DNA of 2,355 nt, taken from Escherichia coli. Lineage in GTDB: Bacteria > Pseudomonadota > Gammaproteobacteria > Enterobacterales > Enterobacteriaceae. Below the pieces are notes generated by a model. The model did not search any database, was not told the DNA's origin, and saw nothing but the letters and a program-made list of their open reading frames with translations. Of this stretch, positions 613 to 2,355 are shown piece by piece (the first letter of the stretch is position 1; the number at the start of each line of letters is the position of its first letter). The stretch lies in assembly GCF_003334405.1 (NCBI RefSeq), contig NZ_QOWM01000037.1; one strand, written 5' to 3'. Both the position numbers and the translations under genes were made by a program.

Positions 613-819
613 TTAGTGTACGTACTTCCAGACGCCGGAAGGCACCTTATCATAAAGTTTATTCATCACCAGTTCTGCTCGGCGATGATCTGCGGCAGAA
701 TAAAATGCCTCTGATTCTGATAAAGGCAGCTTGTAACAGTTAATCTCAATAACTTTTTCAAGAGTATCTCTTGATGTACATTTTCTTAACTGAAAAAGCC
801 ATTCCTGCTTTGTTTTCAC
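613..819 (-). CDS. hha: Hha/YmoA-family nucleoid-associated modulator (H-NS co-repressor family), 68 aa, GTG start
   Basis: Translation [68 protein letters not shown] matches, along its whole length, my recollection of E. coli Hha (..[54 protein letters not shown]). Start codon is GTG (817..819 on minus), preceded by an AAGGG Shine-Dalgarno-like sequence about 7 nt upstream; an in-frame TAA two codons upstream excludes a longer N-terminus. Stop TAA at 613..615. Confidence 0.88.
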
Positions 820-2355
820 TTCTTAGCCCTTGCCGGAAAACCCAGCTTCCCTGTTTTCTTATCCTCAAGGACAAGAACTGTATCATACGTTCCACCACTT
901 TTCTTTTTAAATCCCTTAATCAAATCGGTTTTCCCTGATTTAACCAGTTTTTCGGCCTGTGCCTGGGTGATTTTCTTACCAGAAAACTCACTCCAGATTT
1001 TAAATTCACATCCGGTACAGAAATAACCTTTCGGCCTGATAACAATATGTTTACCACAGGAAGGGCAGGGAGAGTCCAGGCGTTGAAACTGCCCTGCTGG
1101 CGCAGCGGGTTCAATCTTCATCTCGCCCAGGTCAACATCAGAAATCATGCCTGTTAGTTCACCGTACAGATCATTAATAAACTGTTCAACCGTCAGGTCG
1201 CCATTTTCTATGGCAGCCTGCTTTTCAGACCATAATGCTGTCATATCAGGATTAACCGCTATACCAGGCAGGGCATCAATAAGCGCATATCCGGTATCAG
1301 TAGGAATAAGTTTCCCTTTTTCCAGCGTGATATAGTTTCTTTTCTTCAGCGTTTCCAGAATGGCTGCGCGGGTAGCTGGCGTACCAATGCCACCATGTTC
1401 ATCTTTTTTGTCTTTATCCTTATCCTTCAGTAATTTTTTTATCACTGGATCAGTGACAAAATCCGCGACACGAACAAGCGCAGCAAGCAAGGAGGCTTCG
1501 GTGAATAACGGCGGCGGTGTTGTTTTCTTCTCATTAACAATAACTTCTTTTGTCGTCAGTGTTTCTCCTGTGCGAATTTTACAGAGCAGTTCAAAAGCGG
1601 AATCATCATTATCTTCTGATTCACCTTCGTCTGTGGTTTCCGCGCCAATAAACGCCTCAAATCCGCTGTCAGTTGTTTTTCTGGCACGGGCATAGAACGA
1701 CTCATCACCACACTGAATGGCAACCGATACTTCCTGGTATGCTTTTTCAGGCATGAACTGAACAAGATAGTGTTGTGCGATCGCCAGGTAAACATTGCGC
1801 TCGTCGGTGCTGAGTGCGTTAACATCAGGCACACTGGCGGTAGGGATTATCGCAGTATGCGCAGTCACCTTTGCACTGTTAAACGCTTTGCTTTTACGTG
1901 AAGAATCAATATCCAGCGACTGAGGAAAGACTGATTTCAGGGCATCGATAACCTGCGGCGCTTCGCTGAATTGTTCATCAGAAAGATATGAGCAATCAGA
2001 GCGGTTATAAGTAATCGCTTTATATTTTTCACGTAATTGTTGCGTAATATCCAGCGTTTTTTGTGCCGTCATTTTGAACTTTTTGTTCATGTATTGCTGG
2101 AGTCTGACCAGGTTAAACGGCAACGGCGCAGCCGTTTTTTTATCATCAGTTGCTGCCGCTTCAACTGTAGCCGGTTTTCCTGCAAGGGATGCTGCCGTTC
2201 CGTCTGCCCACGCTTTATCAAGTAATTTACGGTCTGTCAGCGGAGCAAATTCCCCTGGCTTCCAGTTCGCCCTGATAACATCAGCACCACGCTGAAAAAC
2301 TCCGGTCATGGTGTAGTAAAAACTGGATTTATGGTTCTGGTTAGCACGGGTACGA
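816..2355 (-). CDS. topB: DNA topoisomerase III-like (type IA topoisomerase), partial: N-terminal part including the Toprim domain lies beyond the right edge of the window
   Basis: Minus-strand ORF 816..2309 (497 aa from the first in-window ATG) stays open in the same frame from 2310 to the window edge (no stop in codons 2310..2354), so the gene is truncated by the window. The translation carries the Topo III-type active-site motif [12 protein letters not shown] (catalytic Tyr codon at 2007..2009), the conserved type IA motif GIGTPATRA (1365..1391), and a C-terminal C4 zinc-ribbon CPSC-x13-CTGC (1008..1067) followed by a Lys-rich tail. Stop codon TGA at 816..818. Confidence 0.9.

Follow-up and report, generated by a model that had tools for sequence, protein, structure and literature searches.

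Topoisomerase III (Topo III) of Escherichia coli needs its decatenation loop in order to decatenate DNA (PMC4191389); the loop residues that fall within the stretch aligned here are Q508, K510, K513 and K514, and the canonical acidic loop of the same enzyme comprises D251-E253 (10.1101/356659). In topoisomerase I (Topo I), the zinc ribbon has an aromatic residue at the second position ahead of its third cysteine, and this residue stacks on the bases of single-stranded DNA (ssDNA) (PMC9369019). Plasmids also encode Topo III enzymes, which have been proposed to serve as decatenases or swivels (PMC4117785), and TraE of RP4/IncP-1 is given as a plasmid Topo III homolog by Li et al. (1997), as cited in PMC4117785. 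On IncX plasmids, including R6K, pNDM-HN380 and pCROD2, topB and hns constitute a conserved backbone or "stealth" module (PMC3630922, PMC11796372), and the topB/hns synteny in IncX has also been described elsewhere (10.64898/2026.06.14.732234).

The DNA analyzed here (the window) is a stretch of 2,355 nucleotides from E. coli that shows 100% DNA identity to the E. coli IncX4 plasmid NZ_CP070012.1; its DNA matches 1373 plasmid records, with at least 80% of the window covered in 753 of them. All features described below lie on the minus strand (-). RefSeq annotation and translation place the 3' 1.5 kb of topB at 816..2355, encoding residues 206-717 and the TGA stop codon (816-818) of the 717 aa protein WP_001694195.1, and the N-terminal 205 residues (the TOPRIM domain) lie past the window's right edge. 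A preliminary description of this DNA had begun the reading frame at an internal ATG (2309), but the frame runs off the right edge, and the residues 224-241 which it gave for an acidic stretch were numbered from that ATG and correspond to 444-462 of the full-length protein. Immediately downstream, RefSeq annotates an hha homolog (613..819, 68 aa; model NF008191 Hha, 107 bits, cut-off 90), whose start codon, GTG, overlaps the TGA that ends topB (GTGA at 816-819, read directly from the sequence). This is followed by a gene of the H-NS family (131..595, 154 aa), the IncX "hns/sfx/hppX" partner of topB, whose product matches the H-NS and StpA models with E values of 5e-31 and 8e-28, respectively, both under the equivalog cut-offs. 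The gene order topB-hha-hns on a single strand of an IncX4-typed replicon fits the topB-hns maintenance ("stealth") module of IncX plasmids, and topB would be transcribed together with hha and the hns homolog; scans for promoter and terminator consensus sequences returned counts no higher than those in shuffled controls. The region is an already annotated topB in the backbone of an IncX4 resistance plasmid, with gene and domains known. IncX4 and IncI2 plasmids, of whose conserved backbone topB is a part, rank among the major carriers of resistance genes such as mcr-1.

The preliminary description had recognized a Topo III-like type IA protein, and on this point Pfam, the Topo III profiles, the alignment with the E. 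coli enzyme and the structural model agree. The Pfam Topoisom_bac model matched TopB with an E value of 3e-77, and scores exceeded the cut-offs of both NF005829 (625.5 bits against 597) and the topB profile TIGR01056 (533 against 515.75), the latter match spanning residues 1-703 and both profiles reaching into the C-terminal module described below; TopB fell far short of the cut-offs for all Topo I models and for two equivalog models, NF006032 and NF011313. The catalytic tyrosine, Y321 (codon 2007..2009, motif ITYNRSD), lies at the codon named previously and aligns with Y328 of E. coli Topo III. In a 65-sequence alignment, in which the TOPRIM residues (E, DxDxE) were read from the full-length protein since they are outside the window, E7, D104, Y321 and H371 were invariant, with D106, E108 and R323 present in at least 90% of sequences. 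The domain IV motif GIGTPATRA (1365..1391) contains the invariant residues G529, T530 and T533. The AF2 model of TopB has a mean pLDDT of 93.4, and its best match in the PDB is E. coli Topo III (1I7D; target-normalised TM 0.89, E about 1e-62), with Topo I structures ranking behind Topo III (E about 1e-36). Compared directly, E. coli Topo III (1D6M, 1I7D) and TopB share a four-domain toroidal core (residues 1-610, E 4e-116, about 37% identity), the catalytic tyrosine, the TOPRIM residues, the KK pair of the decatenation loop and an acidic segment in domain II. Taken together, these comparisons indicate that TopB is an intact Topo III-type (type IA) enzyme which retains the catalytic residues and is predicted to adopt an E. 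coli Topo III-like fold. Searches of a literature library for biochemical or genetic data on IncX TopB, including decatenation or relaxation assays, returned none.

Against this shared core, the preliminary description had singled out four features that it did not associate with chromosomal Topo III of E. coli, namely an acidic stretch, a KD-rich tract, a zinc ribbon and a basic tail. We consider it highly probable that TopB is the Topo III of the IncX4 backbone and that all four features characterize the family, a clade of mostly mobile-element-borne enzymes, and are not peculiarities of this gene. A Topo III lineage in which these traits are conserved, and which occurs mainly on plasmids and integrative elements, is already catalogued; the finding is therefore essentially ordinary, and no new kind of system is revealed by it. 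The lineage to which TopB belongs shows three conserved elaborations: the decatenation loop has 8 more residues, the acidic loop in domain II is longer and flexible, and a flexible linker leads to a single module of ~85 residues. In the alignments, E. coli chromosomal TopB indeed lacks three elements, namely the KD extension of 8 residues, the C4 ribbon and Toprim_Crpt.

The decatenation loop, a feature of domain IV absent from Topo I, was found in TopB by alignment as the segment 1386..1475 (residues 499-528), which corresponds to residues 502-520 of the E. coli enzyme; it keeps the KK pair (511-512) and is 8 residues longer than in E. coli TopB, the additional residues being located at the end of the loop and carrying a KDKDKK-E motif. 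The KD tract (1398..1427, residues 515-524), followed by HGG and then by GIGTPATRA, forms the conserved core of this extension. While it was correctly placed in the preliminary description, its reading as a low-complexity insertion does not survive comparison with homologs. Among 151 representatives, which share no more than ~50% identity with the query and, by construction of the library, with each other, the length of the segment is bimodal (22 vs 30 residues), with 29-35 residues in 102 proteins and 21-25 in 49. The segment is exactly 30 residues long in 91 of the 151, and within these the motif K-D-K-x-K-K-x-E recurs, with K/R517 in 91/91, D518 in 90/91, K519 in 64, K521 in 74, E524 in 82 and G526 in 88. 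The model predicts a helix (508-517) and then an ordered loop, with a pLDDT of 93-96 across the segment. The tract is net neutral (5 K, 5 D/E), and hence does not represent a simple gain of positive charge for the "basic" loop. Replication slippage as the origin of the tract was rejected, as the DNA contains no tandem repeat there. These data indicate that the KD tract extends the known decatenation loop by a conserved segment which is predicted to be ordered.

The opposite view, that the KD tract and the acidic stretch are functionless low-complexity expansions arisen neutrally by slippage or drift, draws on the biased composition of both tracts and on the variability and predicted disorder of the acidic segment. 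For the KD tract this view is contradicted by its conservation, that is by the fixed length and the near-invariant D518, K/R517, E524 and G526, and it also sits poorly with the high pLDDT and the lack of a DNA-level repeat; for the acidic segment, the character is kept in all six enzymes compared. We therefore regard a neutral origin of the two tracts as very improbable.

The acidic segment of domain II (1584..1640, residues 444-462) contains 9 D/E and no K/R, giving a net charge of -9, and residues 447-453 are predicted to be disordered (pLDDT <50). The preliminary description did not associate such a stretch with E. coli TopB; the stretch itself is present, but it aligns with KERDEENDG of E. 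coli TopB and with counterparts in the IncI2, IncX3 and S. flexneri-plasmid enzymes and in IncP-1 TraE, the E. coli and TraE versions being shorter (by 7 residues in the case of E. coli). Acidic character is thus common to 6 of the 6 TopBs compared, including that of E. coli, although in homologs the length and sequence of the segment vary and its net charge averages about -4 to -5. The acidic stretch of TopB is accordingly best described as a longer, predicted-disordered form of a segment which E. coli TopB also possesses. The equivalent of the E. coli "acidic loop" lies elsewhere (2220..2258, residues 238-250), and in TopB it is 3 residues shorter and barely acidic, with only two acidic residues. 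An acidic partner compensating for the long loop was also considered; the differences were small and we make no claim, as the mean charge of the 444-462 patch was -4.7 in long-loop vs -3.5 in short-loop proteins and that of the canonical acidic loop was -1.3 vs -1.8 (p about 0.02, uncorrected for relatedness).

Beyond residue 610, where the alignment with the E. coli enzyme stops, E. coli Topo III has a ~45-residue basic tail and TopB instead has a linker, a zinc ribbon and a Toprim_Crpt domain. The linker (1068..1139, residues 611-634) joins the toroidal core to the module and has a pLDDT <50 at residues 622-627. It is followed by the C4 zinc ribbon (1002..1067, residues 635-656), with four short beta-strands in the model; the preliminary description had the ribbon and its 1067 boundary right, but its other boundary (1008) is off by 6 nt. 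The suggestion that the ribbon might be dismissed if its cysteines were not conserved among homologs fails, as in 80 module copies from about 50 homologs the four cysteines are present in 80/80, 80/80, 80/80 and 79/80, and P636 in 77/80. The spacing between the third and fourth cysteines ranges from 2 to 10 residues. Recognition of the ribbon by the Pfam model Zn_ribbon_Top1/zf-C4_Topoisom (PF01396) was borderline (E 0.15) and was missed in the first scan; only 1 of 42 modules matched PF01396 at E <=0.001, and a precomputed PF01396 match exists for two close partial homologs.

The Lys-rich end of the protein is as basic as was noted (16 K/R vs 6 D/E and a net charge of +10 over residues 657-717, with GFKKKSGG at 891-914 and a 14-residue basic stretch at 819-860), but it is not a separate tail. 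It corresponds to Toprim_Crpt (Pfam PF13342; 843..1013, residues 653-709), matched with E values of 1.2e-17 (over model positions 1-55 of 60) and 4.8e-19, and the same family is recovered at E <=0.001 in 40 of 42 homologous modules. The structural model shows one helix and then four beta-strands at a pLDDT of about 90. The last 8 residues (GFPARAKK, 819..842) extend beyond the match, and in homologous modules they show poor conservation and frequent gaps. Among the conserved positions of the module are the aromatic residues Y649 (60/80), F656 (about 70-71/80), W659 (54/80) and Y/F695 (79/80) and the basic residues K665 (61/80) and K690 (71/80). Of 152 proteins compared by phmmer, 51 have the module, with 1-5 copies in tandem. 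As judged from these profile matches and alignments, the ribbon and the Lys-rich tail are one catalogued repeat module of ~85 residues. Comparison of the C-terminal 105 residues with PDB sequences yielded chance-level matches only (the PARP1 PADR1 zinc ribbon, E 0.36, and bL32m), and we found no solved structure resembling the ribbon/Toprim_Crpt unit. A homolog search with the 97-residue module retrieved only fragments of near-identical plasmid proteins and was uninformative on distribution. In the literature searched no functional study of PF13342 was found, and a review that matched "Toprim_Crpt" concerns another family, Toprim_C_rpt (PF13368). Toprim_Crpt also appears in the domain list of a Bacteroides conjugative transposon.

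The zinc-ribbon repeats of Topo I (Topo_C_ZnRpt, PF01396) resemble TopB in having a four-Cys ribbon right after domain IV, and Y649, two positions before the third cysteine, is the putative counterpart of the ssDNA-stacking aromatic of Topo I. The TopB-type ribbon differs in that it is always fused to the helix and beta-sheet of Toprim_Crpt as one repeat unit. By analogy with these ribbons, the module of TopB may hold ssDNA beside the gate, and the enzyme would cleave ssDNA through a 5'-phosphotyrosine and pass a strand or duplex through the gate, as E. coli Topo III does. Presumably the enzyme would serve to unlink or resolve the intermediates that arise when its own plasmid replicates, recombines or is transferred, and it may perhaps also set the plasmid topology upon which the co-encoded H-NS/Hha pair acts. 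The extended loop, the flexible acidic loop and the module, for which no structure is solved, are conserved segments which provide precise targets for mutagenesis, useful for asking why mobile elements carry a Topo III of their own.

The long loop and the module occur together in the TopBs of IncX4, IncI2, IncX3 and the S. flexneri plasmid. We compared the 80 best relatives in species genomes (16 long-loop and 64 short-loop loci), a set whose members were picked by similarity to the plasmid protein and are phylogenetically non-independent, and in which the link to mobile elements is based on contig size and a small set of markers. All 16 long-loop loci were on contigs <200 kb, whereas 27 of the 64 short-loop loci were on contigs >=200 kb (Fisher p 7.6e-4), and a mobile-element marker was found within 3 kb of 10/16 long-loop vs 1/64 short-loop loci. 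On two larger contigs (1.37 Mb and 284 kb), the long-loop genes are embedded in ICE-like gene sets. Exceptions to this pattern are the plasmid-borne IncP-1 TraE, which has a short loop, and a short-loop homolog with five modules, whose neighbors on a 1 Mb contig are housekeeping genes. The long loop is thus associated with plasmid/ICE contexts, the short loop with chromosomes of gammaproteobacteria; the module, too, shows a preference for plasmids and ICEs in this sample.

This distribution bears on the idea that the features adapt TopB to conjugative DNA processing, in which the enzyme would act as a swivel or unlinking activity at the relaxosome or on the T-strand, gripping DNA with its ribbon and basic domain, and would not be a general decatenase. 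The enrichment of loop and module on conjugative plasmids and ICEs is consistent with this, as are the 4378 of the best 5000 plasmid matches which are predicted to be conjugative, the position of topB downstream of the T4SS/taxB cluster in the same orientation, and the proposal that plasmid Topo III acts as a swivel in conjugation (Li et al., 1997, cited in PMC4117785). None of the features is conjugation-specific, however. TraE resembles TopB in being a plasmid Topo III-type protein (35.6% identity over residues 1-654) with an acidic segment and one C4 ribbon after the core, yet it is TraE that sits in the tra operon, with traF and traD as neighbors, and TraE has a short E. coli-like loop, a ribbon with the classical spacing C-x2-C ... 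C-x5-C, and no Toprim_Crpt, whereas the neighbors of IncX4 topB are hha and hns. On this combination of location and architecture, IncX4 TopB is not a conjugative-operon Topo III of the RP4 TraE type. Moreover, the five-module homolog resides among housekeeping genes, and the literature groups IncX topB with maintenance genes (hns) and not with transfer genes (PMC3630922). We consider a specialization for conjugation unlikely. The preliminary description had itself favored a role in conjugative transfer or plasmid replication "rather than housekeeping decatenation", an inference which these features do not warrant, as type IA enzymes in general have C-terminal zinc ribbons and basic domains (PMC7587558), a plasmid Topo III such as TraE does without the long loop and Toprim_Crpt, and a homolog with five modules is found in a housekeeping setting; the features do not separate these roles.

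The neighborhood of topB suggests a further possibility, namely that TopB is mainly regulatory-architectural and generates a plasmid-specific topology that allows the H-NS homolog and Hha to bind the plasmid encoding them and to silence it ("cognate plasmid specificity"), with the module or loop helping to bring the enzyme to the plasmid. The tight topB-hha-hns synteny with its start/stop overlap is in line with this, and the linkage is repeated in IncX3, IncI2, the S. flexneri plasmid and beside two long-loop genomic loci; exactly this speculation is made in a 2026 preprint on pCROD2, an IncX4 plasmid (10.64898/2026.06.14.732234), and TopB has been suggested to relieve topological stress induced by Hha/Sfx (PMC11796372). 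Both papers present this as explicit speculation, though, and many long-loop TopBs lie next to neither hns nor hha, those in ICEs of Firmicutes-like organisms being examples. In addition, the action of type IA enzymes is to relax or unlink DNA, which creates no distinct supercoiled state, and the sequence bears no sign of plasmid-specific targeting. A mainly architectural role is accordingly doubtful in our estimation. A stronger version, in which the KDKDKK-E loop extension and the ribbon/Toprim_Crpt module define a mechanistically distinct subclass of mobile-element Topo III that creates or maintains a plasmid-specific topology read by plasmid H-NS homologs, appears less probable still; such enzymes might possess a different gate "latch", conceivable because the canonical acidic loop of E. 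coli is degenerate in IncX4 TopB, or might be targeted to their own replicon. The mutagenesis targets named above also bear on the recent speculation that H-NS homologs owe their plasmid-specific binding to a plasmid topoisomerase.

Among the closest known systems, the TopBs of IncX-family and IncI2 plasmids represent the same gene as IncX4 topB; the enzymes compared are those of IncI2 (85% identity), the S. flexneri plasmid (60%) and IncX3 (40%), all of which share the long loop, the acidic segment, the module and linkage to hns and/or hha. They differ from the IncX4 locus in detail: IncI2 has hha with no adjoining hns annotated, and the IncX3 TopB, which lacks an hha neighbor, carries an extra classical topoisomerase zinc ribbon ahead of the module.

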